From Prorocentrum cordatum (taxonomy: Eukaryota), in NCBI GenBank assembly GCA_963575745.1, contig CAUYUJ010000201.1:62001-116915 (forward strand): a stretch of 54,915 bases of DNA, read 5' to 3'. Under the pieces are notes generated by a model. That model was not told the origin of the DNA. It saw nothing but the letters and a program-made list of their open reading frames with translations, and searched no databases. The translations under genes were made by a program, and so were the position numbers. Of the stretch, positions 3,555-54,915 are shown one piece after another. Position 1 is the stretch's first letter. Each line of letters opens with the position of its first letter.

Positions 3555-3569
3555 CTGAACATGTTTCGC

Positions 3570-5283: not shown

Positions 5284-5379
5284 CTCTCTTGCCACCTGAA
5301 ACCTTTTGAGGCCAACCACCTGGTAGTGGGCAAGAGCTGGACCAAGGGATCACGGCAGTAAGTAAAGGGTGCGATGTGG

Positions 5380-5529
5380 AATGTCTGCGCCTTGACGTTC
5401 GAGCTCGCGCGGAGCCCCCAAGAGGCGGGTCAGCAACCGATCAAACGTTCGCTAGCGGACGTTTGAAGACTGACCCGCCTCGAGGAAGGACAGCGCTTGC
5501 TCAAACGTCGGGCGTGTCACTTCGACATT
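5380..5529. other. ~150-bp nested imperfect palindrome (long hairpin)
   Basis: Arms around centre GCTAGC (5451-5456): TCAAACGTTCGC/GCGGACGTTTGA, GAGGCGGGTCAG/CTGACCCGCCTC, GACGTTCGAGC/GCTCAAACGTC and AATGTC/GACATT. Confidence 0.8.
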
Positions 5530-6288
5530 GGAAGTCCAAAAGCGTGGCCTCCTCCACCTCAGCACCTCCACCTCCACCCCCGTCTCCCGCAGCCTTGAGG
5601 CTGGCGGTCAGCGCGGCGATCGGGTCCGACGACGTCGAGGCCGCCGCAGCTGCGTCGCGGCCGAGACCTGGCGGGCGGGGGACTCCAGCAACGAGCAGGG
5701 GCCGAGAAGGGCAGCACGCATCAGCGGCGAAGGAGGACGAGGATGACGAGGATCAGGAGACGGACGAGAGGAAGGGATAGATGTCGGGAAGGAGGAGGAG
5801 GAGGAAGAAGAGGGAGAAAAGGAGAAGGAGAGGAGGGGAGGAGGAGCGATGACAGATGGAAGAGGAGACGGAGGAGAAGAAAGGAGAGATGAGAGATAGA
5901 GGAGGAGCTTGCAGGAGAAAGGAGGGGAGGAGAGGAGGATAGGAGGAGGGATGCACAGCCGGTGCAGCCGACTGATGGAAACGCGTTGAAGGAGGGCTGG
6001 ATAGAGGTGCACTTTCCTTGTCAGTTGCCCAGGCGGGGGGCCAGCCGACTTGTCTGACTTGTCTAGACTCGGACGCGCGATCCGAAAGCCGAGCGCAGGG
6101 CAGCCAGCAGACCTGCACTGCCCGCCAGCCAGCTCCAAGCGAAGCACTATCCTCCTATCCTCCCTATCGCCGCCCTCCTCCGCTCTCCTTCTCCCACCCG
6201 CCGCCCTCCTCCGATTCGTATCGGCATTTCTCCATCCACTCACCTCCTCACTGGCGGGCCTCGTCCACATTTGGGACCGAGGGCTCAC

Positions 6289-8082
6289 TCACAAGGACCT
6301 CTGGCGCTTGATCGCCCGAGCGCGCTTCCTGGCGACTTCGGCAGCTGCCTCGGCCTCCTCTGAAACCAAAGCAGGGGTCAGCGCAGAGTCGATGCGCGGG
6401 CAAGGGGCAGCCGGGAATGCGATGTCACCAGACTGCTCAGGCACGCGCACTACCAGCAACCATCGATAACGATACACAATGGCGAACACAACTGACCCGA
6501 TAGAATTAACGTGCATTGCATTGCCTAGCTCGCAGAGCATAGAGTTCCGCGTGCGATAAGGAAAAGAGTTGGTAGAACCCCTGGTGAATTGGCAGTCGAC
6601 ACCGTGATACATCCTAACAGCTTCTGGGGTCACTGGGAAGCCCATCGACAAAAACGTCTCGAGTGGCGTCAACCACCTCTCGAGCTCAGCCATCCACGTG
6701 ATCCCCATCCCCCTGCGCAGGGTATGTAAGGGGCCCGTGACTGGGCTGTTCACTTGCTTCTTGATGGTTTGCCCCAGATCCCAATTGCGGCCAGGCAGCT
6801 GCTTCGAGAACTGTTCGAGCCGCTCACGTTCGGTCAAAGTCAAAGCGTACTTCCACGAGCCGTGCGGGTCGTTGAACTTGTCGCCTGCTCGGTGCCTCGC
6901 TTTCACGTCTGTTCTCGAAACCGCCCATTCGTACTCTTCTGCCAATTCCTCCTCTGAGCTCACGCAGTACGACGAAGGTGAGTACCCGCAGCCTCGAGCG
7001 AAGCAGCGGTCGATGAACTCTTGCATGGACATGTGGGGTCCCCGGGGAGGCGGCACATTCAAGCCCTTGAGGAGACCCACCACGAACTGGCGAGGCCGGC
7101 GCGTGCTCCAGCCTTGGTCGCAGGCGTTGAGAGTCACGCGTTCGAGGGAGTAGTGTCCCCCGAGAGCCCGCCGGTACTCGTCATCGCCTTGCTGCGGAAC
7201 GCACTCGAAGATCACCGTGGGTTCCTCGGGTCGGCGGTTGAAAGACGTGGCCCTGAGGGATGCGGTCTAAGAACGAAGGGCCTTTAATCATGTAAATCTA
7301 TCCTGAGGCCTAGCCCTGGGGCCCCACCCCTCAGGGCCCACATCTTTGAACAGCCGACCGAAATTACCAGAGGGAGGAGCACTAGGGGCAAGGGGGAGAA
7401 CGGGGAGTCTAAGGTCACGGGGCCCAGGGGCAGGAGAGGGGGAGGGGGCTCGCCCAAAGAGCAGGTTCAGTCGCAATGGTATTTGGCGCCCTTTTTGAGT
7501 CAGCCAGTCCAAGAGATCGAGTCGCTGCCGCAATCCTATCCATAGTACATTGTAGCCTTCTCCTTCTCGAGAGCCGCGGCTGCCGAAAGTGGAGTCATGC
7601 ACGCATGGAAACCCACTGCAATGGACATGGGTGCGAGATAAACTGCAGTACCCCCCGCATTTCAAACACCAGAGCCTCTTGGTCCGAGTTGGGTTTGATA
7701 GAATCAATCGTCTCCTGGCGTCGACATCTGTCAGCGGGAGCTTTGCCAGCTGGTCTCGCACACGGGGTGTTAGTACTTCATACCAGTCTTGAAAAGCATG
7801 ACGTGGGGCATGAGGTCCACTGTGGAGCATTTCTTCCATGGCCTTCCCGTCCTTCTCGATAACCCAATCGGACGCGACCGAGTATCCCAAAATGGTCCCA
7901 ACAACCCTCGCACTCAAGTCGAAAGTCATAATCCCTGAGCAGCCCGACGAAACCGTGAGGAGGCGGTGCATGCGGTGCCCGTCGGTGCAATCAGCCATGT
8001 GCCCGCACAGAGCATCAGCTTCATCTTTGCCGTGGGTCGCCCACATCAGAGATGACTGAACCGATGCGCATGTGATGGGCAT
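6289..8082 (-). CDS. C5 cytosine DNA methyltransferase (DNMT), at least two exons
   Basis: Motifs occur in canonical order: I SGCSGI, II VIEKD, III FQD, a CLKCGGYC insertion, IV SGFPC (catalytic Cys), then an intron ~7225-7509 (acceptor GAG|GAA CCC, donor probably GA), VI IFECV, VIII RRPRQF, IX RWLTPLE..MGFP and X LGNAMHV. The start codon and possible extra 3' exons (~5500-5670) are uncertain. Confidence 0.88.
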
Positions 8083-8266
8083 CTGGGGCCCCTCAGCTGG
8101 GGCCCGAGAAGGGCTGGCAGCCTCAATCTGACCGCAACGCCCGTTCAGCAAGCGACTGCAGTTCGACCCGAAACGGCAACGGACGGTGGGATCTGATGGG
8201 TTCGTACGGAATAATATCCTATGATCACGGCGGGTACCACACGACGAAAGAGACAGGGGGGAGGAG

Positions 8267-8286
8267 TCCGTAGCCCTTGGCTCAAG
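8267..8286 (+). other. Relic dinoflagellate spliced leader
   Basis: TCCGTAGCCCTTGGCTCAAG versus DinoSL TCCGTAGCCATTTTGGCTCAAG; both ends are identical with a small internal deletion. Confidence 0.8.
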
Positions 8287-8299
8287 CCATTGCGATTGA

Positions 8300-8715
8300 C
8301 TCCTTCTCGGGGCCTTCCTTGGGGCCCTCCTGGAGTTGTTTGTTCTCACTCACCCTTGCCTGGCCGAGCCGTTCTCTCTTCAATGGGCTCTCATCCCCCA
8401 AAATTGGGACCTCCTGGAGTTTACTTGGGATCTCCAAGAAGGCACCAAGAAGGCTCCAAGAGGGCCCCGAGAGGGGCCCCCCTGCTGTCAAGGACGGGGA
8501 CCGCCATCGTGACAGTAGGGGCGCCATCTTGGTGCCTTTCTTGGTGCCCTCCTGGGGCCTTCTTGTGACCCATCAGGAAGCCTCCCAGGGCTCCGAGAAG
8601 GCCCCAAGAGAGCTCCAAGAGGGCCCCGAGAGGAGCCCCCCTGCTGTCAAGGACGAGAGTCGCCATCTTGACAGCAGGGTGGCCCTCTAGAGGCCTTTCT
8701 TGGAGCCCTCCTGAC
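8300..8715. repeat. GGCCCCAAGA/CTCCAAGA-type repeat with ~160-bp duplication carrying a hairpin
   Basis: CTGCTGTCA...TGACAGYAG stem at ~8482-8519 and ~8641-8677 within duplicated CTCCAAGAGGGCCCCGAGAGG context. A related array lies at 24830-25090. Confidence 0.65.
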
Positions 8716-9039
8716 AAGTATGACTTGTCACTTCTCGGTCCGCCGAATGATTGTGCCGGCTGGTGTTATGGAGTTGATTTCCAGGAGTTGCCTTGCCTTG
8801 CTTTGCCTATGTTCATGCTCTCCTCATTCCTCCACGCTCCGTCTCTCCGTCCACCCTGATCCCTCACCCTGATCTCCCCAGAAATGCCCGACAACATTCG
8901 ACACCTTATGGCTGGCATACGAAAAGAAAAATGATCCCGCACCCGTCTCTCCCTCTCCCTCCTGCGCGCCCTGGGACGACGGACAGTGACGGACGCTTAG
9001 GCGCCCTGTCAGTGCCGCCTATGACCTTTATAAGCATGC

Positions 9040-9870
9040 GAGCCCTATGGTCCTCGTGAGCCCGGTGAGACCTATGAGCCCTATGAGCCCCATGAGCCCC
9101 AGCCCCATTAGGCGTCTGAGCCATTTGAGCCCTCTGAGCCCTATGAGCCATATCACCCCTATCAGCCCTATAAGCCATATGAGCCCTAGGAGCCCTAGGA
9201 GCCCTATGAGGCGTTTGAGCCCTACGAGCTCTGTGGGCCCTGTGAGACCTCTGAGCCCTCTGTGCCTTACGAGCCATATGGGCATTATGAGCCCTATGAG
9301 TCCTATGAGCACCCTGGGCCCTATGAGCCGCATGCGCCGCATGAGCCCTATGAGCCTTATGAGCCATCTGAGCCCTATGAGCCTCATGAGACCTATGAGC
9401 CCTATGAGCCCTATGAGTCCTATGTGCCCTATAGGCCTCATGAGCCCTGTGAGCTCTATAAGCCCTATGGACCCTACGAGCCCTACGAGCATTCAAAAGC
9501 CAATCCAACAGAGACCCCCAAACAAAGAGATTCCATGAGACGTTCTGCCAATGTCAGCCCCGAAGCAAATCAAACAGAGACCCCAAAAGCATACACCCTG
9601 AGCCCTACTAGCCCTATTATCCATACGAGGCATATGAACCCTGTGAGTCATATGAGCCCTATGAGCCCTACGAGCCCTACGAGCCCGATGAGCCATATGA
9701 GCCCATATGAGCCCTATGAGCCCTATGAGCCCTACGAGCCCTAGCCCTACGACCCATATGAACCCTATGAGCCCTGTGAGTCCTATGAGCCGTGTGAACC
9801 ATATCAGTCATATGAGTTCTCGGTGCCTTATGAGCTCTCTGAGCCCTGCGAACCCCATGTGACCTACGAT
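9040..9870 (+). repeat. 9-bp minisatellite (GAGCCCTAT)n
   Basis: Directly visible degenerate tandem 9-mers; they generate the spurious SPM/YEP/AHR ORFs. Confidence 0.95.
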
Positions 9871-10214
9871 GGTAAAGGCGAAGCGCAGCGAGCCGGTAAC
9901 ATCTTGTATGCTTGTACCTCTTACATATGTACATGCACACATATGTATACACATATGCATAGGCATATATGTACACACATACATTGTATGCATACATACG
10001 TACCCGCACCACCCCGAACCAACAACAAGGCATACATGCAGCTATATCGAGGTTCGTATGTCGGTAAGCAGGTCATGACCATTGAATAAACACTGCACCG
10101 TTGGGCATATAGGGGTACTCGCGTATAGTTGCTGGCACATCTTGGACTGTATTGGCATGGTCCTGGGGCGGGTGTACAACTCTCATCTGCTGGTTGGACT
10201 CGTCCCCCGCTCGA

Positions 10215-34137: not shown

Positions 34138-34989
34138 GAGTCCCAAGACAATTGAGAGACGAACAGAAAAAACAAACGCCGTTGTTAAGTCGATCCCTTC
34201 CCTTCCCTGCTGGGTGGGTGGGGATACGGGGGGAGGGCAGGGGTGGGGGGGCAGGGGAGGGGTAAGGGGGCGGGGGTCCCTGGTCAGATTGCCGCCCCCC
34301 AGAGGTGCTGGCGGGTCCCCAGGGGTGAACCCACCTGTTGGACAGGAGGGACAAGGAGGGGTTCCCCCTGTGGGGGGAGCTGGCCCTGGTCCCCAGGCCC
34401 AGGTCCCGACCCCGGCCCCGGCTGTGGCTCCAGCCCCAGCCCTGCCCCAGACCCGGCCTCGGCCCCAGCCCCAGGGTCCCGGGGGGAAGGCCCAGGGGCC
34501 CGGGGGAAGTCCCGCCTTCAGGGTCGGCGGCACCGGCCGTAAGGCCTTCACAATATAATGACTTGCTCTATCTCGCTGCCCCTCCGCGCAACAGATTCCA
34601 ATGTGTAGGCATCCCCAGCTGACGGGAGACGGACCACACGCGAGAGTAGAGAGGAGCGAGAAGGCGGACGAGGGAGGAAAGAGGACGGTGGAAGGAGGAA
34701 GGCGGAGGTAGGGTGGAGGAAGGAGGACGGCGGGTATAGGGAGGGTGGAGGGTGGAGGTCGACGCGGGAGGATGGAGGGCAGAGGGCGGAGAGCGACGGA
34801 CGGAGAGTGGAGGAGAGGAGAAAGGAGGGTGGAGCAGAGAGGGTGGAGGGAGAACAGACCGAGGGACCATCAACACCATAAACATCACCCTCGATTCATT
34901 ATCCTTATGAGCAACCCCTCCCTGTCGCACCCCGAGGCCAGTCGGAATGGCGGGCCATTTCACCACTTCTGTTCCTGAAGCTTAGAATG

Positions 34990-35717
34990 CAAGAACATCA
35001 CGGATTGAGGGCGGGTGGTTTTCAAAATGTGGCTCTCGCCTTAGCGCCGCGCACCATCTTAAAAATTGCAAGAGCTTCACAAATGGAGGGCGGGTAAATG
35101 TGGCTCTCGCATGAGCGCCGCGCACAATCGTCATTTAAACGTGCATGAGTTTCATGGATGGGAGGACGATCCTTTGCAAAATGTGGCTCTCGGCTTTGTT
35201 GACGTCCCAGAAACGGCGTTGTGGCACGATTTCGAAGCGCCAGGGCGCAATTGTTAAAATGATTCGTGGTGTTGAAGTCCCTGTAATGGTGTTCTGGTAA
35301 GAGTCAGGGTCGTCAAGACGAACAGGAAGGGTGATTTGCAGCGGTGAAGTCCGAGGAAAGGCGTTCTGGCACAATTCAGGATGTTTAAACGGTTGTTTTC
35401 AAACGGGGCACTTCTTTCAGTGAATGGCTTCTGACGAGGGAGCTTGGAGGGAGGGCGTATTGCAGCATCGTTGATGAGTCTTGGGTTTACACTGGTCCTT
35501 CTCCTTCTCCTTCTCCTCCTCCCGCGCCTCCTCGTCCGCCTTCGGATTGTTAAAAAAAGAGAAGGAAGGAGGCCACAACTTCGCGATCTGGCCACAGTGT
35601 GGCCGTGAACTGGCCACGGAGTCAACGAATAACCTGAACCGAAGATGATGAGCATTCGCTTAATCGCGCTCCCCTGTCTCCTCTTCCTCACCCTCCTCCT
35701 CCTCATCATCATCAACC

Positions 35718-35769
<52 letters not shown>

Positions 35770-36450
35770 CATCCTCATCCTCATCCTCATCCTCATCCTC
35801 ATCCTCATCCTCCTCATCATCATCATCATCATCCTCATCATCATCATCATCATCATCATCATCAGTTTTGATCAGAAATAATTCCTTTTTGCCGCATCCC
35901 CAGACATACAAGCAGGGCGGGTCAAGCGTTTTGCCTGAGAGATCCTCACCAAGTACAATCCTGAAGCTTAAACTTTGCAAAACCCTCAAGACTTGAGGGC
36001 GGGTCAGTTTCAAAATGTGGCTCCCGCCTTATCGCTTCGCACATTCGTCTTGAGAAGGTGCAACATTCTCAAGGATGGAAGGCGGGTCGCTTCCAAAGTG
36101 TGGAGTCGCCTTAGCGCTGCGCACAGTCGTGTTAAAAAGTCTGCAACAGCTTCAAGGATGGCGGGCGGGTCGTTGCCAAAATGTGGTTTGCGCCTTGGCG
36201 CCGCAAACATTCGCATTAAAGAATGCATCAGTTTCACGGGTTTGTATGGTTGAAGTACCAGGAAGGGTTTCTGGCACGATTTAGGACTGCCGAGGCGCAA
36301 CAGACACGTTGGTTCGCGGTGTTGAAGTCTGAGGAATGGAATTCTGCCACGATTTGAAATTGTCAGGACGCAACAGCCATGCTCATCCACGGCGTTGAAG
36401 TCCCAAGAACGGTGTCTTGGCAAAATTGAAGATTATCAGACGCTTGTCTC
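34990..36450. repeat. Dispersed/tandem repeat family with AAATGTGGCTCTCGCCTTAGCGCCGCGCAC core, plus (CAT)n at 35700-35862
   Basis: Core motif recurs at ~35025, 35097, 35179, 36013, 36096 and 36179; CTGGCACGATT and GTTGAAGTC motifs also recur. Confidence 0.7.
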
Positions 36451-36696
36451 CCGATGGGGCACTTCTCGCAAAGAAAACAACGGATAGTAGGGACGTGTGA
36501 AGAGGGAACTCGGAGGGAGGATGTATTGCAGCATCGTCGGCGCGTCCTAAGCTTACACTGGACTTATCTGTCTCATCCTTCTCCCCGTCCCTGTCCTCCT
36601 TTTGTTCTCCTCCACCTTAAATATGTATGCCTGGTTTCCTTCCGGTATCCTCCTTATCCTCTCCCCTCCTCCTCCTCCTCCTCCTCCTCCTCCTCC

Positions 36697-36871
36697 TGCA
36701 AAACCCCGAGGAGGGTTCTGCACGGGAGCCTGGCAACAATGATAACGATAGGTCACCTTTATACTCCCGAACGGCAAAGCAGGTCTATGTAGCTTCGACC
36801 GTTAAACACTTGAGCCAAAGGCAGCAGGGTTACTATTCCTCCCCTGTCACACGCACGCTTGCATGTTAACA
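36697..36871 (-). repeat. 3' LTR (175 bp, TG...CA)
   Basis: TGCAAAACC...GTTAACA, directly preceded on the minus strand by the polypurine tract GAGGGGGG (36879-36872). It is homologous to 47323-47567 (shared CACCTTTATACTCCC, GGTCTATGT, AACACTTGAGC, AGGGTTACTATTC). Confidence 0.85.
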
Positions 36872-37278
36872 CCCCCCTCGGACGCCAGTCCGCATTGGCT
36901 GACGGGGAGGTGCCTATAAACGCAAAGACAGGTTAAATCAAGCAACAGGCTGCATGGACATCGTTATACTACCGAATTCGAAATATCTCATAACAACGTT
37001 CACGAGCACCACGTCTCTCAGACATGCAACGTGAGCTCAAGTAAACATTCAATCAGTTACGAGTTTAAATGTAGCATCCAAAGTTCACACGGCAGGCTAG
37101 CATTTATATGGTTTTGATTGTTTTCGCTTTTTATGCGCCAATACCTGCGGTAACCATAAAATATGCACCTGCAAATAGATTCAGCTCAATAGTCTACTGC
37201 AACGCTATTGTTAAGCCTGGTTGAGAGGGGAGATGAGAGAGAGCGTAAAAGAAAAGCATGCCGGTCACCTGTCACCGT

Positions 37279-39849
37279 TTACGAGCGGCGCGGGCGCCTC
37301 ACTGACGGAGCACGCGCGCCTCTGGACTTCGGTAAACCACGGTGCCCCACGCTGGCCGCCGTATAGGACGACACCCTGTTAAGGGCCTGCGTCGGGCTGT
37401 AATAGTCGGTGTCCAGGTACGCGTTAATGCGCTCCTCGTCGTCCAGCCAGCACCCCTCGTCAAAGCTCTTGGTGGACCCGTCAACAATGTTGTGGTAAGT
37501 GCCGATGGCCCTCCAGTAACTGGCGTGGGGAGCCTTCAGCAGAGGTTTACCACCTGGATTGTTGCGGAGGTGCTCCTCGACCGCAACTCCGGTAAACGGG
37601 TTCACAGTCCAGGCCGGGTCGGTAAGCCAGTTGGGGAAGTCGTCGCACGGCAACCATCCAAACCAACAGAGCTTCTCGCGGTGGTCACTTTTACGCTCGG
37701 TGATGTGATCAGCGGGCCAGTTGTCACGGTAAAGTGCCCTCATGGACCCCTGATCGTTAAGAGCGACGTCTAGGATGGTCTGGTGCCAGTAAACCGGAGG
37801 CTTGTTGATGCTGCCCTTTAACTCCTCGGCGCTCCTGACCTCGAGATCCTCGATGAAGTAGTTGCGGTAATACACCTGGAGCCCGTTCATGTAACGGCAA
37901 TAGAGCTTGGCAAGGTCGTGCGTCGCAAACCTGATCACGGTAACCCCAGTTGAGATGTAACCGTGCGGTCCGTAAGTGTCTTCCACCAGGTGCTTAACGG
38001 AGACCACAGTGGGGTTGCCGTGGGGCAGCATCCCGGCCCACGTTAGCAGAAGGCCGTTAAGCTGCTTCTCGTTCATTTCTGGTGCCTTGTTGACGTAGAC
38101 CTGTGTATCTGGGCAGCTGTGAACGTCGAACCACACTGGGTGGAGATCGGTAACGTGGATCGGCGGCACGTACTCGTCGTCGAACAGGGATTGTACGTGC
38201 CCGACCGCGTCAACCCACTCGTCGTGCTTGGCCAGCTCCTTCTCCGTCAACTGAGATCTCCAGCTGCACGGGCCCTTCAACACTGAGTAACCGAGGAAGC
38301 CGTAAGCGTGCTGCCCGTAAATGTCGACGAACACCTCATCGTAGTCGTTAAGCTCCCGCCCCGCGTTGCCCTGAATAGACCGACCACCTGGAGTCGTTAA
38401 CCCCTCTTTTGCCACATGTCCGACGAAGTTGCCTTCGAACCTGCGCCAGTTGTCGCGCGTCTTCATCGTTAACGCGACTACTTCCCTGGGGTCGGGCTCC
38501 ACCTTGTAGTTGACGTCGCGGTCCTCGCTCCTGTCGTTCGCCATGGGCATGCGGCCGTTGACATGGCACAGTGGGCGGTGCATGCCCCTGGCAACGTTCC
38601 GCGAGTATGCCGCAAGCTGCTCGCCCGCACGGTTAACAGCTTGAGGCTGCGGTGGAGGAACGTGCTGGGTCGATAACTTATTGGGCACCGGAGGCGGGGG
38701 ATTCATGCCGCTAACACTGCTCGATGCACCTGACTCGCCAAGGCCTGGAGGAGGCGGCTTGGGCGCCCTCACGTTCACCACCGGGGCAGGACCTTTTGGT
38801 ACTTCGTCACGTTGACTGCCCTGTGCGCGATTTTCATCCATCTTCATTCCCAGCTGCAGTAACTCTTCCAGTTCCCGTTTACGCTCATGCATGGCCTTGG
38901 GTGCTTTCTTGTAAACAGGTTGAGGTGACGTTGACTGCGGGATCTTATTCGGCGACACGGATCGACCGAACCCTCTGGTCTTGGGCGTGGTGCCGGTAAA
39001 GCCCTGAGCCGGGGGTGCACCCGATGCCGCGGCAGCTCGGGCTAGAGGCTTGCTGGCCTCGGCCGCCGCGTTGACTGCAGTGGGAGGCGCCTTGGCGGCC
39101 ACTGCCGTTGGGGGCTGCTCGGGTAACGGCGGAGGAACCTGCGGGATGTTGGTAACCGGGGAGTTGATCGGGTCATGCAAGAACCTCTGTAATCCTTCGA
39201 GCCTCTCGGTTACACTCACCAACATGCGCAGCGCCGCATCACGTTTACCCTCGAAGTCCTGCAGGGGCGTGATGTTCTCGGTAAGGCGCTTGGCGGTGTT
39301 CAGGGGGTAACCAATGTTGTCGTTGATGCGCCTATACTTGGTTGCATTCTCCTCCGTGTTAACTCCCGAGTCACGATTCTGAATGTTCAGGTCCGTAATC
39401 GTCGCCATCAGAGCGTTAATATCCGCCTGCGCCCTTTGGAGATTCTCGTTGACGTCGTCACTGTCCTGGATCAGCGCCTCGTTCTGCCGCGTTAATTCCT
39501 CGATCCTCTTCGCCATGTCATCCGCGGCCCTTTGCACCTCGTCAACGTGTTTGTCGTAGGCTCCGTGGAAGTTGATCGCCATGTTAGTGAGGGTTACGGT
39601 AAACCCGTGAGCAACGTGCACCATGTCGTCAACACGGCGGTTGAGGTTCTCACGCGTAACCGGTCCATCCCCAGCCGGGCTCTGGTCGACCATGGAGCCG
39701 TTAATGGTGAGGTTGACCTGGGGAGCCGCCACGCCTTCGTTCACGCCCAAGAGTAAGAGGTAATGGGTGGAGAAGGCCTTTAATAGCTGCAGTTTGCTTG
39801 ACAGAAATGAGCTGCGAACATCAACATTCGGTAGCTGGCGCAAGCTCAT
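37279..39849 (-). CDS. Extra ORF3 of the Copia element (856 aa): coiled coil, Pro-rich linker, RRM-containing C-terminal region
   Basis: Uninterrupted 2.57-kb ORF between the RNase H stop and the PPT, overlapping the pol end by 29 nt. It has a heptad segment (VDEVQRAADDMAKRIEELTRQNEAL...) and an RRM-like segment QVYVNKAP-EMNEKQLNGLL...VVSVKHL...STGVTVIRFATHDLAKLYCRYMNGLQV at ~38110-37865. Confidence 0.85.
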   Translation of the reverse strand: MSLRQLPNVDVRSSFLSSKLQLLKAFSTHYLLLLGVNEGVAAPQVNLTINGSMVDQSPAGDGPVTRENLNRRVDDMVHVAHGFTVTLTNMAINFHGAYDKHVDEVQRAADDMAKRIEELTRQNEALIQDSDDVNENLQRAQADINALMATITDLNIQNRDSGVNTEENATKYRRINDNIGYPLNTAKRLTENITPLQDFEGKRDAALRMLVSVTERLEGLQRFLHDPINSPVTNIPQVPPPLPEQPPTAVAAKAPPTAVNAAAEASKPLARAAAASGAPPAQGFTGTTPKTRGFGRSVSPNKIPQSTSPQPVYKKAPKAMHERKRELEELLQLGMKMDENRAQGSQRDEVPKGPAPVVNVRAPKPPPPGLGESGASSSVSGMNPPPPVPNKLSTQHVPPPQPQAVNRAGEQLAAYSRNVARGMHRPLCHVNGRMPMANDRSEDRDVNYKVEPDPREVVALTMKTRDNWRRFEGNFVGHVAKEGLTTPGGRSIQGNAGRELNDYDEVFVDIYGQHAYGFLGYSVLKGPCSWRSQLTEKELAKHDEWVDAVGHVQSLFDDEYVPPIHVTDLHPVWFDVHSCPDTQVYVNKAPEMNEKQLNGLLLTWAGMLPHGNPTVVSVKHLVEDTYGPHGYISTGVTVIRFATHDLAKLYCRYMNGLQVYYRNYFIEDLEVRSAEELKGSINKPPVYWHQTILDVALNDQGSMRALYRDNWPADHITERKSDHREKLCWFGWLPCDDFPNWLTDPAWTVNPFTGVAVEEHLRNNPGGKPLLKAPHASYWRAIGTYHNIVDGSTKSFDEGCWLDDEERINAYLDTDYYSPTQALNRVSSYTAASVGHRGLPKSRGARAPSVRRPRRS

Positions 39850-42800
39850 GCCTACCTGTTAATGCACATTGATTCGTGTTTCGCAGATGTGTGCTCATGC
39901 TTTCACGACTGACATACTTGGTCAACGCATCCGCTGCATTCTCGTGTGTCGCTACTTTCCCAATACGAATCACTCCCTCCTTAACTTTCTGCTGTAACCA
40001 CAATTGACACACCTCGATATGTCTTACTTTCCCCAAGCCTCGTCTGCTCGCAATGGCAATCGCAGCCGTGGCGTCGCTCTTCATTGTAATCCCAACTTCC
40101 AAGTTAAAGTCTCTTAATACTGCCTGAAGTCCTAAACCCACTGATCCTCCTTTCACAAGTTCATAATACTCTGCTTCACCTGACGATAATGCGATGACAC
40201 TCTGAGTCGTGCTCCAAGATTTAATGAGATGTTTACCCCACATTACTACTCCTCCACTCGTAGACTTCCTCGTTCGCTTACATCCTGCGTAATCCGTGTC
40301 GGTCCAAATAGTTAATTCTTGGGGCTGCTCCTGCTATTGATACACATAGCTGCTTCTGCTGCGGTACTTCAAATACTTTCCTAACTTGACTAAACCCTTC
40401 CAAGAACTCATCGTTGGCTTTGACATGGCCCTAGCGAGTTCCTTTACAGAATACTGCATGTCAGACCTGTCCTGAGCTAAGTAATTTGCTCTGGCCGTCA
40501 ACGGTTGATATATTTTAGTCATGTTGGGCGAAAGTTCTACCTCATCTCCCTCTTCAACTGGAATTCGCTCACCTGGCACTTCAGTCCTCACTTTTACTCC
40601 TTCTAGCTCAAGCTCTTTCACAATTATCTCTGCATGCCTTTGATCTGCCTCATACCTCAATCCTTCCTTCGTCCATTCCACAATCCTGTTAAGAATTCTG
40701 ATCGCCTTCATGTCCTCCTTCCCTGGTCCAAGTCGTCCTCTCACCTTCACTTCAAACTCCTCCTTAATTTTATTGTCAAACCAGTCGAGATCATGATCGC
40801 CTCCTAACCGCGTGAAATCATCTCCATGAACTGTTAACCATAACGCTCGACTCTCATGCTTGAACACGCATGGTGACGCAATTCCGCTCTTGAACCCAGC
40901 CTCGTTAGCAAAGTCCATGTAACAGTCTTCCCAGTTGCTCGCAGCGTCTCTGGTTCCGTACATTGATTTTAACAGTTTTCCGCACATACCTGGTTCATAG
41001 TCTTCGTCTGGTAACCTGATAAATATGTCTTTCTGTGCAGGAGCGTAAAAGTAAGCTCGTTTGATGTCAACGAATGCTAACTTTAATCCTTTCTCACGCT
41101 CACCGTTCGTGAATCCAACTCCCTCGGTAACTGCCATTGAGAAAAGCAGTTTTTGTGCCTCCAGTGGAGGTGTAGCTGCGAATATGTTCTTTTCTATGGA
41201 ATTGTATTTAACCTGCTGGGCTACCAGCCTTGATCTGCGGTCTGGGCTTAACTCATCTCCTTTGTTGATGTCTATCCATCTGGTTCCGATGGGCGCCTTC
41301 CCCGCGATTTGCCAACACACTTCCTCCTTCACTTTCTCGTAAACTTTGTGTTTCCTGAATTGTTCCATTTCTTCTTGACGTGCTTTTACAGTCAATTTAG
41401 GGTCGAGCTCGTTTCCTGTGACATCATCCCAAGCCTGAGTAATCTCTCCGTTTTCTTTGTGGACAACGTTGATCGTGTTCATTGGGAGAGGGTTAACTGT
41501 ACCAGTTCTTTCGCACGCCGCACATGTGCTAGGCGTCTTGAGCCATCCCCCATGCTCACATGCACAGCACTTCCACCTGTGTGGAGCAATTTCGCCGACA
41601 GCTTCATACGTAAAAGTGGTGGAAGTGTTAACTGGTCCCTTCTTAAACATTCTCCTTCTCTCTTTCCCTGTGATCTCGTTCACAGGCCTGTCCTCGATAA
41701 TCTTCCCGGTGTCCATGTCAGCGGTAATTCTCCTAATGCGTGAACTCCATTGCGGTCCACTTGGTCCCGGCAGCATTAATCTTTGTGTTCCACAATCTCT
41801 CCTCGTCCACGTTAACTGGTGCTTGTGCTTCCTATCTTCGTTCTCATGTTCACATGCCCAGTTAATCTCGCTTATCTGCGCCTCACTTTGTTCTTCTTCT
41901 TCGACTTCCACGTTCGCTACTTCTTCTTCTTTAAATGTACCCCCTTGACGACCGTCGATCTTCATTTGCTTTACAAGTCCTTTCAGTATCGCTCGACACA
42001 GTTCATCTGGGTAGACCTCTGATCTGTGCGTCCTACCGCCACCAGTTAACTCCATGTGTCGACGTTGCCCTTTACATTTCCAACTTAACTCATGGCCGAT
42101 GGCTGAACTATTTGTCATGAACTTGGTCGGTTTCTTAATGAACATCTCTTCGCCTTTGACCATCTGCTTTAAGTCGTAACAGCACAAATCTCCATCGTAT
42201 ACTTTGACATCCTTGTTTCTGAGTAACCGTTGCACCGTTGAAGTGCCCCAGCTGGTTGCTCCTGCAGGGTGCTCAAACAGAAAGTATAACCCACTTCGCC
42301 GTTGAATTTCACAATGCTCCATCGCAAACGTCAAATGCTTGATCCCGTAATCCAACATCTGTTTCACACGGTCAGACCTAATCTTTTAAAGTTGAACGTT
42401 TGGAGTCTGCTGAAGGCTGCGCACATGGGGCTCACCACCAGTAACAGGGCTGCTTTGGATTTGACAATCTTTTTCGCTTTCGCACGCATGGCTGGCACAT
42501 TAAAAACCCATGGGTTACCATGTTGGTCTCGCGTCGTTAAGTCCATTGCTAATCCCGGTATCAATCCCATTTTTTCTGCCATTCCAGTAACTCTCACCGG
42601 CGAATACGCCTCGGTCACGTGCGCCTGAGTCTCGTGTTGACATGCCCCATGGAGCCTGGTGGCTCTCCTTACTTCGTTTAATTGACGTACGATGTTCAAT
42701 TCCCCACTTGTCAACCATTCAACCAGTTCAGAGTCAAATCCCATCATGTTGAGCCCCAATCTGATGTCGTTTACTTCTGACATTTCTTCGTCTTGTTCCA

Positions 42801-44687
42801 TATCCAGTTGACGATGTTGAGTTGCCTGTTGATCTTCTTCGCCATGGTCGTCCTCTGCTTTTCGTTTAATGGGTTTACTCGGGGAATCTTTCATCTCTTC
42901 ATCTTCCACTTCGAACTCGGTCCATCCGGTCCAGTAACCGTTAAAGGGGATTCCCATAGCCCATGTTTGATCGTCTCCATCTTCACCATACCAAGCATCT
43001 TCGTGCTCATGTATCTTGCCGCCGTCAATCATGATCGCGTGGGTATATCTTTTAGGCTTAAGTTTGTCCCAATCTACTGGACACCCACCATTGGTGGGGA
43101 AGGCTAACTCTTTCCTCGGTCGTCGGTGCTGGCATATAACTTTGTTTCCCTTTATCACCCACTCGTCCTTAGGTTCCTCAACTTTGGCGCTCGGCGGAGG
43201 CGGTACATTGATCCTCAGTTTCTTCGCTTGAGTTTCTGATTCTTGTTCGCGATTTTCTGGTGCACGACTTTTACCCTCAAGCCTTAACTGTGCAGACGCT
43301 AGCCTTGCCTGGATGCTCGGGCTCTCTTGTTTCTTTAACCATTCAATAACTCGAGCCCTGCAATCAGCGTTATGCGGTCTGTGTTCTTTGTCTCCTCTCA
43401 CGAGGCATTTACATCCGTAACACCCTGGTGTCGGTCCCATTTTCAAGTATTCGTGCTTTTTAACTGCAATCCCTCGTGCAATGAGCGGCTTCGTCTCAGG
43501 CGCAATTAATTCTTGCCCTGGTAGATCCATGGGTACCATGGTCCTAGACTGTAATTCCATTCCCGCTGTGCTCGGGTCAGGCTGCCAAGGTAACCCCTTT
43601 ATTTCGGTGATCTCGGCAATATTCCATCTTTCCGCATCACTTCCTTTTCTTTTAAACTCGTGCGCCTTGATTGCACCATTGGGCGTCCCAATAATTAGCT
43701 CTTGACTCTTCTCGTTTATGCCTAGAAACACTCCACTTTCCCATCTCATTTCGAGCTTCTCGCGGCCTTTGTGCGCAGGTGTCTTCAAATACATGACGCA
43801 CTCACCAAACTCAGGAATTTGCTTGTTAAACTTTCGCCCCCTGCACCTCTCATGGGCCGTCTTCCCATCCGTGTCTATTGTGAACTTGTTAATCCAAGAG
43901 GACGCGTAGCTCACCAGCCAAGGTATTATCTGATGGCTTTCACCAAACTCAGTCTTATAATTGGCATCTAAGGCGCTCTTTAACGTTCTGACCTGACCCT
44001 GCACTGTCCTAACGGCTCTCTCAATTTCGCCGTTGGCCTTTGAGTCGCCTACTGGGCTAACTTCAACTCCCATGTCAAGATCACACGAAGCTTTAATCCT
44101 ATTGGCCAGTGCTGTGGTTGCCGCTTCCCCATCACTTTTGAGCATCACCTTCCTGTATCCGGTAAAACTTATCATGTCACATCCTACTTTTACCGAGTAC
44201 GAGTCCACTCCCTTTTTCATCAACACTCTGCTCCAAGTTAATTTGGTCTCTCTGCAATGCATGACCAAAATTGGATTGCCATTGCCGGTGCTTTCACCTT
44301 CATCCTTTCTTCCTTTAAGCCACATGTAGTCCATTGAAATCACTGGCACGTTTCCGTTCCCCTCTCTTTTGCGTCTACGGTGATTGCGTCTGCGCGCTTT
44401 CCCTCTGACGCAATGTGGGCACCAACTTCGGTAAGGTAATGCGTCGTGTTATGCGCTTCAACTTCCTCCTTTGAGGGCCTCATGTCACAGTGAACTTTCT
44501 TTGGTAACTCCGCTTGATCACCCACAAATACATCTTCCACATCACTTAACTCACTATCGTTGCCCCCACTTTCACTCCCTTCGTCTCCTTCGGTATTAAA
44601 GACGTTTAAGTTTTCGCTTGGTCTTACGGGTGATGGGGGGCTTAGTAGAACAGATCCGCCTCCAGGGTTCCCGGCCGCGGAAAACCC
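39821..44687 (-). pseudogene. pol: pol: integrase, accessory domains, MTase-like domain, reverse transcriptase, RNase H (2 frameshifts, 1 stop)
   Basis: IN zinc finger H..TH.PYRSWCPHC (1-nt shift ~44437) and DDE core SMDY/KSDGE/NGEIERAV. A further shift lies at ~42365. RT motifs are DIKRAYF, KSMYGTRDAASNW and VHGDDF. A TAG at 40334 precedes RNase H TDTDYAGCKRTRKSTSGG, SSGEAEYY, RHIEV and NAADALTK. Confidence 0.93.
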
Positions 44688-47190
44688 TCAGTTACGTTCA
44701 CTTCACTCCTGGGATTGACGGCCTCCGCTGGTCCCTTCGGTACTGCGATGTTGAACTGGAATGTGCCATTCTTCTCGTGAATGGTTGTGAACTTACCGGT
44801 CGCCTTGTTCATGATGTGGCTCAGGGATCTCCCGTTAGAATCCTTGTCGAACACCACTCTATTTCCAGCGTTTACCATCTCTCTGACAGATCCTAGGACT
44901 TTGTTGACCTCTGCTACCTGAATCGGCATACTGACGGCGTTCCCATGCTCATTTTTACCTGTGATCACTCGTTGACCATAATTCTTTATCGTGGTTCCAT
45001 TTGCTGCACTGTAGCGTCGTCCCTGCTTTGACGCGTCCGTATGCTTAATAGGGAAATGAGTGCCAACTTTGGGGGGTCCCACTGCGTTGCATGCGCCGGA
45101 GTCCACGGTAACCACGATCGTCTCATGCGTTGCACTTGGTGGTGGCACCGCGTTAATCTCTGGATCACAGCCCCGCATCTCAATTAGCCCGATTTCCTTG
45201 CACTTCTCCAGCCAACTTTTTTCCTGCCTCACGCTTTTACTTATTCTCTGGTCCCATTGACTAGCATGATTACAGTCCCCGTTACACTGGTGTTCCTGAT
45301 AAATTCTTTTCAAATTCGCCGCGTTGTTACGTGCCGTTTTCTTTCTGGCGTAATAGGGCAGGTCCCATTTCTCGTTAACCTCCTCGATTGCAGGCTGGTC
45401 TAGCGGCACGTTCATTGCTTCCTTCATCTCAACGCTGAGAACATGCTGTGGTTGGCCGAACGAGGTGGTTTGTTCAATCTGAGTGTTCACTGCAGGTTTC
45501 TCTTGCTCAACTTCGTTGGCGGTCTTCTTGGGGCCCGGACAGTTAATGGCGATATGCCCTTTTCCGCCACACTTGTAACACTCACGCTCGCTGTGCGGGG
45601 TGAACTTCCCTTGGCCTCCGTAGCTTCCTCCCCGCGAGCTACTTCCTTTACCCCCCTGTTTGCCTCCGATCTTACCTTTCACATAGGATCCGTAAGTGGC
45701 TCGGTAACCTTTGCCTTTTCCGCCCTTGCCACCTTTACCTCCTTTGGTGAACTGTTTAGGTCTTGTGCAGTTTCTGGCTAAATGGCCCATGCCTCCACAA
45801 TTGTAACACCTGGGGCCCGCTCCTTTACCTTTGCCTTTGTTTACGGCGTCAATTTCTTCATATTCTCCACCGTCACTCTCATTGGCCCAGGACCCGTAAT
45901 TCCACGATCCATCTTCTGACCACAAGTTTCCATCTTCGTCAACCCATCCTGTTTGGTCCCAAACATTTTCGGACCCTTGACTCATCTCGTTGATATTCCC
46001 AATGTCCATTGCATCCTTATTTTTCGTATCTGAGTCAAGTTTCTTTTTACGCGCCCAGTCTTCGCACTTTGAGTGCAATTTCTGAAATGAGTCAATGTTA
46101 AGCGCGTCAGGCGTTCGCCAACACGCCTGCTGCCATTCGTCGAACCAGTCATTCGCGCGCACCATTATGGCCCTGAGCGCGGTGACTTTAAAAGGAAGAG
46201 GCAGCGAGTAATCTTACCATATTTCTCAAGATTTTCTGCCAACGCGCTCCATTCCTCAAGTCGGGTAACGGTGTCAGTGATCTTCTTGGGCGGCTCAGGA
46301 TTCATGGCATGCGTCATTTTTGATGATAAGGTCGCCCCGGTTACCGCCGAGTACCATTTGTAAACCTTTTGCCAAGCCATGATTCCATCTCCATCCATCA
46401 GTCCCTTTAATTTTCCTCTGGCCTCCGCACCTTCAAGTTTCTCGTTCAGAATGTACCATAAGTCTTCCTCCATCTGAGTTTTGTCTCCCTCGGTGAACTC
46501 ATATTCGCCTTTGTTGTCGTCCTCGGCCTGTTTGGCTTGATTCGCCTTCGGGTACTCACTTGCAGTTAATCGGCCGTTCATTATGCGTATGATGTCGTCA
46601 TCGTCCTCCTCTGGTACGACTCCGTCAAGCGTCTCCAGCTTCTTGTTTAGCATTTTCAGTGCCGGTCGGTAACTCGGCTTCACTTGGGCTAGTGCGTTCA
46701 AGAACTTGTCGCTCCAGTCTCTGAACTTTGCTCTTTCCCCACTGAAGTTCTTTAGCGCCTGTAATGCTTTATATTCGCTTATCGGTTTACTGCTCCCGTG
46801 CTTGCTTCCGCTTCCTCCTTTAATCGCTTCCGAGACCTGACCAAACCTTTCGATCAACTTTTCTTGTACTTCACTGTTGGTCTCCAACTCGGTGACTCTT
46901 TCCACCAATCTGCGAGCATCCCTTTCGAGTGCAGCGCTTCTCTTTGTGATCGCTAACAGCATGCTGTTGGTCTTGTGGGCACTCTGTAACATTTGGAACG
47001 CTTCGGCATTCGATACCTCCCTTCGATCCTGTGTTACTCGCTCGTTAATGAACGTTGCGAGTCCGAAATGGTTCGCGAGTAGCGCCGTCTGAACGTAACT
47101 GAAGTCTCCGCTCATGTATGCTTGCTCGCACAGATCGTTGAAGCGATTCGGGTCCATGTTGACACCCAGACAATCTCCGGCACGCGGCAA
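44642..47190 (-). pseudogene. gag: gag-protease ORF (1-nt frameshift ~46215)
   Basis: FSGERAKFRDW capsid-like motif, zinc knuckles CYNCGGMGHLARNC and CYKCGGKGHIAINC, GKG-rich tract, and aspartic protease VTVDSGA in the same frame, ending at TAA 44642. Confidence 0.9.
44655..44687 (-). promoter_or_regulatory. Putative -1 programmed ribosomal frameshift signal
   Basis: G GGT TTT heptamer (44687-44681) is in phase with the gag frame. The -1 frame has a TGA immediately upstream and is then open into the IN zinc finger. A stem CCGGG-AAC-CCTGG starts 6 nt downstream. Confidence 0.65.
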
Positions 47191-47310: not shown

Positions 47311-47322
47311 CCGACTATACCA
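47311..47322 (-). other. Primer-binding-site-like sequence
   Basis: Minus strand reads ...CA|TGGTATAGTCGG directly after the 5' LTR. TGGTAT matches the usual tRNA-iMet type start; the remainder is uncertain. Confidence 0.55.
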
Positions 47323-47567
47323 TGGCAGGAAGAAAGAGCACCGAGTATGGTTGCAGTGCACGGAGCCGTGTGTCAAATTGTACAAACTAAGGTTCCACCT
47401 TTATACTCCCCGAACTAACACAGCGGTCTATGTCATCGCAGCTTCGGACCGTGATTAGAACACTTGAGCGCAGAGGCAGCTAGGGTTACTATTCACTATG
47501 AGCCCCTGGTCACTGACTTCAGATTACTCTATCAGACGGCCTTGCATCTCGGCGAACCTATTTATCA
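47323..47567 (-). repeat. 5' LTR, insertion-rich copy (~245 bp)
   Basis: Colinear with 36697-36871 but with many short insertions; the right boundary is approximate. Confidence 0.65.
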
Positions 47568-47916
47568 CCTCTGTGCACTCCTCGCCAACCTCCTCTCACC
47601 ACTTACGACGGCCTGAGCTCTACACCACTACAGGATCGACGGGGGTATGCGACATGCCTGACGCTTGTTTCGGACTGCAATTATAATCCCCAAGCAAAAT
47701 GCTTCACGTATCAAGAAAAAAGAAGTGCGCCCGCCAGTTCAATCGATTTTTCTTCCATCCTAGCCGATTCGACTTCTTGTTAGCAGTGCGAAAGAGCTCC
47801 TTCCTCCTCCTCCTCTCCTCCCCTCCTCCTCCTCCTCCTCCTCCCACTCCCATCTGGTTACTCCTCCAGGTCCGTGTAATCATCCTATTCCTCCCCCGCC
47901 TCCTCCTCCTCCTCCT

Positions 47917-47936
47917 CAGTGACATGTTGGCTCAAG
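47917..47936 (+). other. Spliced-leader relic upstream of the decayed LINE
   Basis: CAGTGACATGTTGGCTCAAG; the last 14 nt match DinoSL CATTTTGGCTCAAG at 13/14. Confidence 0.55.
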
Positions 47937-53519: not shown

Positions 53520-54349
53520 CGGTGCCGCGCGGTGCCGCCGACGCTGCTTGGCGAGGGCTCTGGCGACTGGGGGGGGCTCTGGTGATCAAAGGGCTGCTCC
53601 GCCTGAAGCTGCTCAGCATGCGGCCCCTGCTGCTGCGGCGGCGCCGCTGGAGGCGCCCTTGCCCGCGGCCAGCGCGACCGCGCGGGCCTGCACGCCGCAG
53701 CTGCCGCGCACGCCGCCGCGCGCTCAGGCCGAGGGCGATGAGCAGCCCAGGCCGACGGAGGTGAAGAGGGCGCAGCGGACGGCGCCAGCCGACATGGAGC
53801 CCCAGGATGCCGGAGGACCGCTCGTGATAGCGGGCAGTCTGACGGCGGCAGGGATGCGTCTCCCCGCGCTGGAACGGGGCCCCGCCCTTCGGAGCTACTG
53901 GCGGCGCGTGGCACAGGAACGCGCTGCCGCTGCCAGCTCCGCGTGGGCGGCAGGATGAGGCTCGTTTCTCACATTCATTGGCTTGCGTCGCATCCCCTCC
54001 CTTCCTCGGTTAGCGCGAAGGTAATAGCAGTTGTTTGCCTCCGCCGTCGTCGTTCGTCCGCGTCGAGAGGGCGCGAAGTTTTCCTTCCCCCGCTCACGTA
54101 CGAGATGTCACGACATCACGAGAGCAGGAGAGTTTCAGTCTGTGTCCCAGCCTTCTCCCCGGCTCTCTTCCGCGCCACGAGAGCAGGAGGAACTCGGTTT
54201 GTGTCCCAGCCCTCTTTCTCCCTCTCCTCATTCACTTGTCCTCCCTCCATCCCTCCCTCCATTGCCCCTCCCGAGTGGCCGCGAGCCCACGCCGTGGCAA
54301 TTGATTCGTTGCGCGCTCCGCTGCTGGCCGCTCGTTTTGAGAGAGTGGG

Positions 54350-54915
54350 CGTCTCCCCCACCCAGCACAGCCCGCCGTGGCCCCAGAGGGAGCTCCGCCG
54401 AAGGCTCCAGTGGCTGCACTCGCATGCGCCTACCCCACCCAGCACAGCGTTTCGTGGGGGGAGCTTCACCGAAGGTCCCAGCGGCTGCACTCGCATGCGT
54501 CTCCCCCACCCAGCACAGCGCGCCGTTGCCCCATAGGGAGCTAAGGCCCCAGTGGCTGCACTCGCATGCGTCTCCCCTGGCCAGTACAGCGCTTAGGGGG
54601 TTCGACCGAAGGCTCCAGTGGCTGCACTCGCATGCGTCTCCACCAACCAGCACAGCGTTTCGTGGCCCGAATCAGAAAGCCCACCGAAGGCCCCAGTGGC
54701 TGCACTCGCATGCGTCTCTCCCACCCAACAGCGGTTCGCGGCTTCCTAGGGAGCTCCACCGAAGGCCCCAGCGGATGCACCCGCATGCGTCCCCACCACC
54801 CAATACAGCGCTTCGTGGCCCCCAGGACCCTCTAACGAAGGCCCCAGTGGCTGCACTCGCATGCGTCTCCCACGCTCAGTGCAGCGCTTCGTGGCCCCAT
54901 AGGGAGCCCCACCGA
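54350..54915 (-). repeat. 66-78-bp tandem repeat related to the SINE-like VNTR, runs off right edge
   Basis: GCAC.CGCATGCG recurs at ~54416, 54487, 54558, 54624, 54702, 54777 and 54853, and shares GGCCCCATAGGGAGCTCCACCGAAGGCCCCAG with 18480-18680. Confidence 0.9.

Follow-up and report, generated by a model that had tools for sequence, protein, structure and literature searches.

A conserved third gene with a predicted coiled-coil and RRM architecture in Ty1/Copia retrotransposons of marine protists

A 54,915-nucleotide stretch of the Prorocentrum cordatum genome (GenBank assembly GCA_963575745.1, contig CAUYUJ010000201.1, positions 62,001 to 116,915 of the forward strand), called the window here and numbered from its first letter, carries a Ty1/Copia retrotransposon in which the pol gene is followed by a third open reading frame (ORF), ORF3. 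This frame occupies positions 37279-39849 on the minus strand, as does every other feature of the element described below, and encodes a protein of 856 amino acids (aa), ORF3p, with an ATG start and a TAA stop. We conclude that ORF3 is a real, conserved, element-borne accessory gene and no chance ORF, and that its product joins a predicted N-terminal coiled coil to a conserved C-terminal domain at whose centre structural modelling very probably places an RNA recognition motif (RRM) fold. Additional ORFs of long terminal repeat (LTR) retrotransposons are mostly of obscure function, and an ORF in the env position is commonly taken for an env-like gene. To our knowledge, the layout of coiled coil plus RRM has previously been tied to the ORF1 proteins of long interspersed nuclear elements (LINEs). 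Among the additional ORFs of LTR retrotransposons, ORF3 stands out by an ORF1p-like make-up for which we know no precedent, and the lineage that carries it consists of Ty1/Copia retrotransposons of roughly 10.4 kb from marine protists that possess a genuine third gene.

ORF3 is a sense ORF situated between pol and the 3′ LTR, after the RNase H region, and the order of features upstream of it on the same strand is a gag with two CCHC knuckles, an integrase-like region, a reverse transcriptase of the RVT_2 family, and RNase H. The frame of the gene is +1 with respect to that of pol, the ATG is found 26 nt upstream of the pol stop codon, and the two genes overlap by 29 nt (39821-39849). An initial annotation, drawn up from the sequence alone, had described an 856-aa ORF inside the LTRs after RNase H; the ORF and its position stand, and the enclosing LTRs hold only loosely, being short and 74% alike. 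ORF3 is identified as a gene of the element because it has full-length relatives and because an intact three-ORF relative shows the same gene order. A word-indexed search returned two relatives of full length (841 and 863 aa), which share 54-55% identity with the query across 95% of its length. When longer relatives were sought, one further protein (854 aa) came up, and none in fused form. With the C-terminal 429 residues as the query, an exhaustive HMMER run matched 71 proteins at E≤0.001, 34 of them at E≤1e-10 and nine at E≤1e-30, mostly fragments. These matches include a 475-aa relative with 31% identity and P0007, a protein of 876 aa with 34% identity that was matched at its residues 477-865. 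All 11 members of the P0007 cluster are 876 aa long, and eight of them lie on contigs of 10.4-11.3 kb. One metagenome scan gave a sole return, the 10,523-nt contig L001, which contains three intact ORFs: a gag with CCHC knuckles (ORF1, 210-2783), a pol with an RVT_2 domain (ORF2, 2723-7567), and an 876-aa ORF3 (7506-10136) that overlaps the end of pol in the +1 frame.

The relatives come from environmental sequence collections. Ten relative clusters that we looked up derive from ENA, JGI/IMG, Logan and MetaClust, and the only names attached to them are "hypothetical protein" or a GOS scaffold label; no further relatives were found in viral contigs or in prokaryote genome contigs. The initial annotation had also raised the case of an ORF unique to this copy and identical to a host gene. 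Relatives were found, no identical host gene turned up, and no cellular homologue came to light among the 71 HMMER matches.

The comparison with L001 gives a measure of how long the gene has been kept. The window and L001 pol sequences are 57% (408/710) and 65% (444/684) identical in the two regions aligned, whereas the C-terminal domain of ORF3 is only 32% identical (131/407; E 9e-62) between the window and L001/P0007, and the N-terminal half is no longer alignable. We take this difference to mean that ORF3 has long been maintained: judged from these alignments, the gene is kept, with its position and its architecture, through long divergence while evolving faster than pol. Conservation among close relatives is graded by domain. 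The C-terminal domain is 68-69% identical to that of P0001, P0002 and P0092, with no gapped column among 410; the helical and coiled-coil region is 46-51% identical with at most one gapped column; and the linker between them is 36-40% identical with 52-73 gapped columns. Such a domain-wise pattern is as would be expected under selection. The first 45 residues overlap pol and are not conserved, and the relatives start at about residue 43.

This depth of conservation bears on whether ORF3 might be a host RRM gene that travels with the element as a passenger, or a module captured only recently, its GC-richness then telling of a host origin and not of a role in transposition. The GC content of ORF3 (0.588) equals the window average (0.582) and exceeds that of the pol pieces (0.46-0.48), and additional ORFs of LTR elements have often proved to be captured host sequences, as stated in the consulted portions of PMC7264820. 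ORF3 is, however, found with the same architecture and position across lineages that differ by 35-43% in pol and by 68% in the ORF3 domain, and we therefore regard it as old and maintained and not as a passenger; the lack of a cellular homologue among the 71 matches speaks in the same direction. We consider the passenger reading improbable. An ancient capture followed by co-option would be compatible with the explanation that we prefer, that of an accessory protein of the element itself.

The base composition of ORF3 was examined further, since the initial annotation had taken its contrast with pol as a sign of capture. The contrast itself is borne out, and it extends to third codon positions: GC3 is 0.72 in ORF3, 0.49-0.50 in the integrase (INT) and reverse transcriptase (RT) pieces of the window pol, and 0.44 in its RNase H piece. 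The contrast by itself is no proof of capture, and it is equally strong in the distant, intact L001, where GC3 is 0.71 in ORF3 and 0.52 in pol. Because it recurs in L001, high GC3 is a stable property of the ORF3 gene and not of the window copy. This bias could stem from a GC-rich host out of which the gene was captured long ago, or from selection for the efficient translation of a protein needed in abundance. GC3 in gag is intermediate (0.56-0.58 in the window, 0.64 in L001), and we infer from the resulting gradient, pol < gag < ORF3, that translational selection is the favoured of the two. The conserved, GC3-biased codon usage suggests that ORF3p is needed in stoichiometric rather than catalytic amounts.

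The conserved C-terminal domain (37330-38559, residues 431-840) comprises a helical N-subdomain, the RRM core, and a Trp-rich C-subdomain. An AlphaFold2 model of residues 431-840, built on an alignment of 49 sequences, has a pTM of 0.76 and a mean pLDDT of 69.9. The RRM-fold core (37858-38103, ORF3 residues 583-664, model residues 156-237) is modelled in the order β1-α1-β2-β3-α2-β4, with strands at model residues 156-160, 188-197, 204-214 and 231-237 and helices at 167-175 and 217-227, and with a pLDDT of about 72-93 in blocks of 10 residues. A Foldseek comparison of the model with the PDB returned almost only RRMs, including those of HuD, HuR, hnRNP M, SETD1A, CstF-64 and RBM39, at E-values of 0.02-0.12, probabilities of up to 1.0 and TM scores (normalised to target length) of up to 0.75. 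When the model was compared by VIA-align with 48,161 representative chains, all 50 of the rows listed were RRM or RRM-like, with Z scores of 4.3-5.3, a range in which a match can reflect a common arrangement (Z under 8). The alignments in these rows cover 73-113 residues at 1.7-8.3 Å root-mean-square deviation and span model residues 143-294; examples are the RRM of Rna15 (Z 5.3, 2.9 Å, 84 residues) and that of eIF3b (Z 5.2, 2.2 Å, 87 residues).

Sequence profiles point to the same fold. A profile of the family, searched against PDB sequences, gave 14 matches at E≤10, of which 12 are RRM proteins, the best being hnRNP M (E 0.0023). RRM_1 is the Pfam family matched by the largest number of members (three of 49, best E 0.023). 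In the ESM Atlas the C-terminal domain found weak leads below 0.9, with RRM_1 clusters at ranks 5 and 12, and residues 675-840 found no match. The BFVD search yielded no match at E≤0.001, and the Rfam search no family in the window. Several lines that are individually weak or modest thus agree, and it is on the uniformity of the lists that we base the assignment of an RRM fold as very likely. The RNP-like strands proposed in the initial annotation, which had suggested HHpred or AlphaFold as a check on the fold, are matched by the β-α-β-β-α-β order of the model and by the two structural lists.

The RNP2 and RNP1 consensus motifs are textbook features of RRMs; in canonical members the aromatics at RNP1 positions 3 and 5 stack on bases, and RRMs that do not have them often bind proteins. 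The ORF3 family retains part of this pattern. An aromatic residue occupies position 2 of the RNP2-like V-Y-V in 23 of 28 sequences, and within RNP1 there is Gly at position 2 in 30 of 31, Arg at position 7 in 24 of 29, and an aromatic at position 8 in 27 of 30; at position 3 an aromatic is found in none of 31 sequences and at position 5 in two of 31. Judged by these residues, the ORF3 RRM is non-canonical. It resembles the canonical RRMs of ELAV/Hu proteins, hnRNP M, CstF-64/Rna15 and eIF3b in its β-α-β-β-α-β order, the RNP2-like V-Y-V, the RNP1 Gly, the terminal aromatic and a weak profile match, and differs from them in its missing aromatics at RNP1 positions 3 and 5, in falling below all Pfam RRM thresholds, and in being embedded in a 410-aa domain.

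The missing RNP1 aromatics are also the first of the observations that favour the main rival to an RNA-binding role, namely that ORF3p is a protein-protein adaptor. Under this alternative an RRM of the UHM-like or occluded kind, together with its flanking subdomains, would recruit a host factor from the export, translation, chromatin or anti-silencing machinery, and the coiled coil would provide avidity. UHM and Nup35 MPPN domains are indeed among the VIA-align matches listed (for example, rows 38 and 42), and about 250 conserved, Trp-rich residues flank the RRM. Conversely, the RNP2 aromatic, the Arg at RNP1 position 7 and the basic Arg/Ser tails of the family fit nucleic-acid binding, and L1 ORF1p binds RNA despite non-canonical RNP motifs, according to the passages of PMC6428221 available to us. 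We regard the adaptor role as rather unlikely.

The remainder of the protein agrees with the layout that the initial annotation had outlined. The coiled-coil core (39388-39555, residues 99-154) consists of about 56 residues in eight unbroken heptads, in which 14 of the 16 a and d positions are hydrophobic, a score reached by none of 200 shuffled sequences. The same score of 14/16 is found in P0001 and P0002, and one of 13/16 elsewhere in the N-terminal half of P0007. A prediction of a two-copy complex of residues 60-235, run without a family alignment, scored 0.01, with the fold of the partner uncertain. The coiled-coil region is followed by a linker (38560-39144, residues 236-430) that is gap-rich in alignments and rich in Pro and Ala, with 19-22 such residues per 50 in the bins 251-300 and 351-400. 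Beyond it, the conserved, Trp-rich residues on either side of the RRM amount to about 150 before it and about 190 after it. The protein ends in an Arg/Ser-rich basic tail (37282-37329, residues 841-856); in the window protein, 17 residues at the end include seven Lys or Arg and no Asp or Glu, and most of the 26 tails listed are likewise basic and rich in Ser or Gly.

No transmembrane segment was found in ORF3p, as the initial annotation had surmised. By a crude Kyte-Doolittle hydropathy scan, which stood in for a dedicated predictor, the best 19-residue mean in the window protein is 1.19, within the non-conserved first 45 residues, and the highest means in the four relatives P0001, P0002, P0007 and P0008 are 0.96, 0.95, 1.56 and 1.15. 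These maxima fall within the first 45 residues, which are not conserved, or in the region of the RRM helix, and never at a conserved terminal position. The scan bears most directly on the suggestion that ORF3 corresponds to the env-like genes of Sireviruses or errantiviruses and serves membrane interaction or cell-to-cell transfer. ORF3 does share with the env-like ORFs of Sireviruses, Athila and Bagy2 its sense orientation between pol and the 3′ LTR and its lineage-wide conservation (PMC7264820, in the sections consulted), and it encodes a coiled coil. Several observations stand against this reading: no 19-residue mean reaches 1.6 in the window protein or the four relatives; the N-terminus is not conserved, the relatives starting some 43 residues later; the core fold is predicted to be an RRM; and a search of BFVD gave no viral glycoprotein match (best E 0.06). 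The env-like reading is largely refuted, and we rate it as the least credible of the alternatives considered.

The closest architectural parallel is LINE-1 ORF1p. As described in the portions of PMC6428221 consulted, ORF1p has a monomer of about 40 kDa; its N-terminal half is variable except for a conserved coiled coil, and its C-terminal half, with a non-canonical RRM and a C-terminal domain (CTD), is conserved. Like it, ORF3p comes from a retroelement; its N-terminal half evolves fast yet keeps a coiled coil, and its conserved half combines a non-canonical RRM with a further domain. Unlike it, ORF3p is 856 aa long, with some 200 disordered residues linking the coiled coil to the conserved half and with a helical subdomain of some 150 residues ahead of the RRM, and it is the product of a third ORF, 3′ of pol, in an LTR element with a CCHC Gag, whereas ORF1p is the product of the first ORF of a non-LTR element. 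The two have no detectable sequence similarity, and no ORF1p appears among the fold matches listed, an absence that excludes nothing. The likeness is one of architecture only and would constitute an analogy rather than membership of a family.

By this analogy, the explanation that we prefer, by somewhat better than even chances, is that ORF3p serves as an accessory protein that is oligomeric, binds RNA and functionally parallels LINE-1 ORF1p. ORF3p would oligomerise through its coiled coil, and the RRM-centred domain and the basic tail would bind single-stranded RNA, most plausibly the element's own transcript in cis. The coiled coil would in this way gather several RRM-centred domains and basic tails on the RNA, and the resulting ribonucleoprotein (RNP) might be formed or stabilised for packaging, export or protection, with ORF3p acting beside a normal CCHC Gag. 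A further proposition, which we put forward only tentatively, is that this Copia lineage convergently evolved, or anciently captured, a separately expressed ORF1p-like module that the element's RNA requires in a host whose mRNA is processed in an unusual way; as such a module, ORF3p might be a Rev-like export factor, an anti-splicing factor, or a second RNP-forming protein.

A number of observations weigh against an RNA-binding role. RNA chaperoning is usually the task of a CCHC Gag, and the element has one already. The aromatics at RNP1 positions 3 and 5 are absent or nearly so, and the roughly 250 conserved residues outside the RRM could carry the real activity of the protein. The fold scores are modest, with no Foldseek match at E≤0.001 (best 0.02) and no VIA-align Z above 5.3, and the window ORF3 sequence matches no Pfam family even at E≤10. 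Finally, the ORF3 of the window copy shows no sign of constraint, with 2 synonymous and 6 non-synonymous changes among the few private sites listed. What the initial annotation had proposed as a novel RNA-binding accessory protein is, by these results, a conserved accessory gene product with a predicted coiled coil, a linker and a predicted RRM core, whose RNA binding is presumed and whose RNP1 aromatics are missing.

Among published systems, additional ORFs of plant elements are treated in PMC7264820, which in the parts consulted presents them as env-like and whose main text contains none of the terms RRM, RNA-binding or RNA binding. The heat-activated Ty1-copia elements SmTCL1-4 of Symbiodinium microadriaticum are, like the window element, of Copia type, and SmTCL3 is about 10 kb long; the consulted sections of PMC5776459 describe them with RT, integrase, RNase H and LTRs and with no third ORF, and they are thus set apart from the present element by description and not by sequence. 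Neither those sections nor the corresponding parts of PMC5890265 mention a third ORF in dinoflagellate Copia elements, and we found no account of a coiled-coil and RRM gene in LTR elements in the literature searched, which covered few subscription journals. The occurrence of such a gene points to convergent solutions for retroelement RNA handling across the two great retrotransposon classes. Additionally, the ORF3 family is abundant in marine plankton data and unannotated, and naming it would clear up many "hypothetical" ORFs, while ORF3p offers a concrete, expressible protein for testing.

The element that carries ORF3 in the window is itself damaged. Its gag, probably with protease (44645-47157), encodes two CCHC zinc knuckles (zf-CCHC, E 8.8e-11, two stretches, Pfam) and is broken by one frameshift near 46213. 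Its pol (39821-44702) contains an integrase-like region, a domain with a DNA methyltransferase (DNMT) fold, an RVT_2 reverse transcriptase and RNase H, and is interrupted by two frameshifts and one stop codon. The reverse transcriptase is of Copia type (RVT_2, E 8.7e-12 in the window and 5.9e-17 in L001). The region upstream of it is called integrase-like from a match to SH3_retrovirus (E 0.00056, below that family's threshold), and PF00665, carried by the pol relative P0098, was counted toward an integrase in this place.

Lesions were mapped by tblastn of the three intact L001 ORFs onto the window. L001 ORF1 aligned over its residues 37-352 at 47157-46216 in one frame and over residues 355-857 at 46210-44645 in another, and the match of L001 ORF2 to the window pol is spread over three frames. 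Exactly four lesions in gag-pol result: frameshifts near 46213, near 44439 and near 42376-42409, and an in-frame TAG at 40334-40336. The frame change between gag and pol at about 44645/44702 is native, as gag and pol of L001 likewise lie in overlapping frames. When contigs of four public sequencing runs were aligned to the element (57-1927 pieces per run at ≥90% identity), they had a single additional base at each of 46213/46216, 44437 and 42375, and some or all of the other copies in these runs therefore lack at least the three frameshifts.

The initial annotation had remarked that ORF3 is free of lesions while gag and pol have four. The count of four is correct, and the contrast carries no weight: given four lesions in about 7340 nt, the 2571 nt of ORF3 would be expected to contain 1.4, the Poisson probability of none is about 0.25, and the chance of all four falling outside ORF3 is about 0.30. 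Substitutions private to the window copy, which departs there from essentially every aligned contig, were also counted, at the 39 best-supported of some 1037 variable sites, a sample that is anecdotal; gag-pol has 13 synonymous and 18 non-synonymous ones, and with the 2 and 6 in ORF3 this looks like the pattern of a neutrally decaying copy. Selection on the intact ORF3 of the window copy was considered and rejected on the strength of the lesion arithmetic and the private substitutions. These observations also bear on the idea that the window ORF3 is a domesticated host gene that has outlived its element, an idea to which the open frame beside four gag-pol lesions and the limited likeness of the LTRs (74%) lend some appeal. 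The open frame, however, fits chance, the private substitutions in ORF3 are mostly non-synonymous, and the window copy is one of many in the four sequencing runs; we judge domestication very improbable. The data fit a dead element in which ORF3 is still open by chance.

The pol of the element contains, between integrase and reverse transcriptase, a cryptic domain with a predicted C5-cytosine-methyltransferase fold (41957-42612 in the window, where it is split by a frameshift; 4640-5902 in L001). Although conserved, this domain of about 225 residues had no match in Pfam or in a search of PDB sequences. When the L001 homologue was modelled with AlphaFold2, residues 50-275 formed a core of pLDDT about 80-94, and all 16 of the model's Foldseek matches to the PDB at E≤0.001 are C5 methyltransferases, the best being DNMT1 (8e-5) and others including Dnmt2, MET1, DNMT3A/B and M.HaeIII. 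In the window copy, the motif IV-like SPMC lies at 42409-42432 and the motif VI-like FEHP at 42260-42277; the Cys of motif IV (SPxC) and the Glu of motif VI (EHP) are each kept in seven of seven pol relatives that cover them, and the glycine loop of motif I is altered in the relatives. Symbiodinium Copia elements are described as having no DNMT domain in the consulted parts of De Mendoza et al. 2018 (PMC5890265). The novelty of the domain in pol is uncertain, however, because a 2025 paper (PMC12344493, seen in part) mentions DNMT3 members embedded in LTR Copia structures. If both assignments are true, an ORF1p-like module together with a cryptic DNMT-fold domain would make these the most accessory-rich Copia elements described. 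Elsewhere in the window, at 6289-7266 on the minus strand, a separate frame of 325 codons matches the Pfam family DNA_methylase (C-5 cytosine methylase; E 2.7e-05, 24.2 bits, the cut-off being 22); a second mobile element equipped with a methyltransferase may be its source. This frame, like the occurrence of the element in marine metagenome runs, agrees with a dinoflagellate host and is no proof of one.

The termini of the element are its least regular part. The 5′ LTR-like sequence (47323-47540, about 218 nt, its start approximate) is atypical for the family and ends in CA directly before the sequence TGGTATAGTCGG (47311-47322, read directly), which, from general knowledge of LTR elements, we take to be a primer-binding site; its counterpart after the LTR of L001 is TGGTAGCGGAG. 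At the other end a polypurine tract, CGAGGGGGG (36872-36880), stands directly before the 3′ LTR, as GAGAGGGGG does in L001. The 3′ LTR (36697-36871, about 175 nt) reads TGTTAA...TTTTGCA, is followed by a (GGA)n microsatellite, and aligns end to end with the L001 LTR. The two window LTRs are 74% alike with gaps (131 of 177 columns identical in a local alignment of 47513-47341 with 36850-36706), or 80% alike over 100 nt by BLASTN, which was also the best result of three repeat searches, none of which found a long repeat pair flanking the element; the terminal repeats of L001 are 131 nt long and 99% alike. The bin 47346-47700, which takes in most of the 5′ LTR-like sequence, had zero depth in all four sequencing runs, although these cover the rest of the element, and the 3′ LTR was covered in three of the four. 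No target-site duplication was evident on reading the flanks. The coding region has decayed too modestly to account for so large a mismatch between the LTRs; this points to recombination among dissimilar members of the family, or else to a join made in assembly.

Within the otherwise diverged LTRs the most conserved island is TTTGGCTCAAGTGTTT, located at 36800-36822 (minus strand) in the window and at about 96-115 and 10456-10475 in L001; it is 95% identical over 20 nt between the window 3′ LTR and L001. This island resembles the 3′ end of the dinoflagellate spliced leader, a likeness that we regard as no more than a lead. The spliced-leader-like 11-mer is not enriched in the window (three matches at up to one mismatch against 1.14 expected, a number reached by 12 of 100 shuffled sequences), and the full spliced leader is absent from the window at up to three mismatches.

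Several simple and tandem repeats accompany the element. (GGA)n microsatellites lie at 36654-36705, at the end of the window 3′ LTR, and at 1-38 of L001, at the start of its 5′ LTR, and a further (GGA)n tract occupies 47800-47925, some 260 nt upstream of the window 5′ LTR; the family may insert preferentially at GGA repeats. The region 34988-36208, immediately downstream of the element, contains five copies of a 67-nt direct repeat (61-100% identity) as well as two-copy repeats of 64-91 nt spaced about 920-1070 nt apart, beside long (CAT/CCT)n tracts. At the end of the window, a tandem array at 54310-54894 consists of eight units of about 71-77 nt with 61-100% identity.

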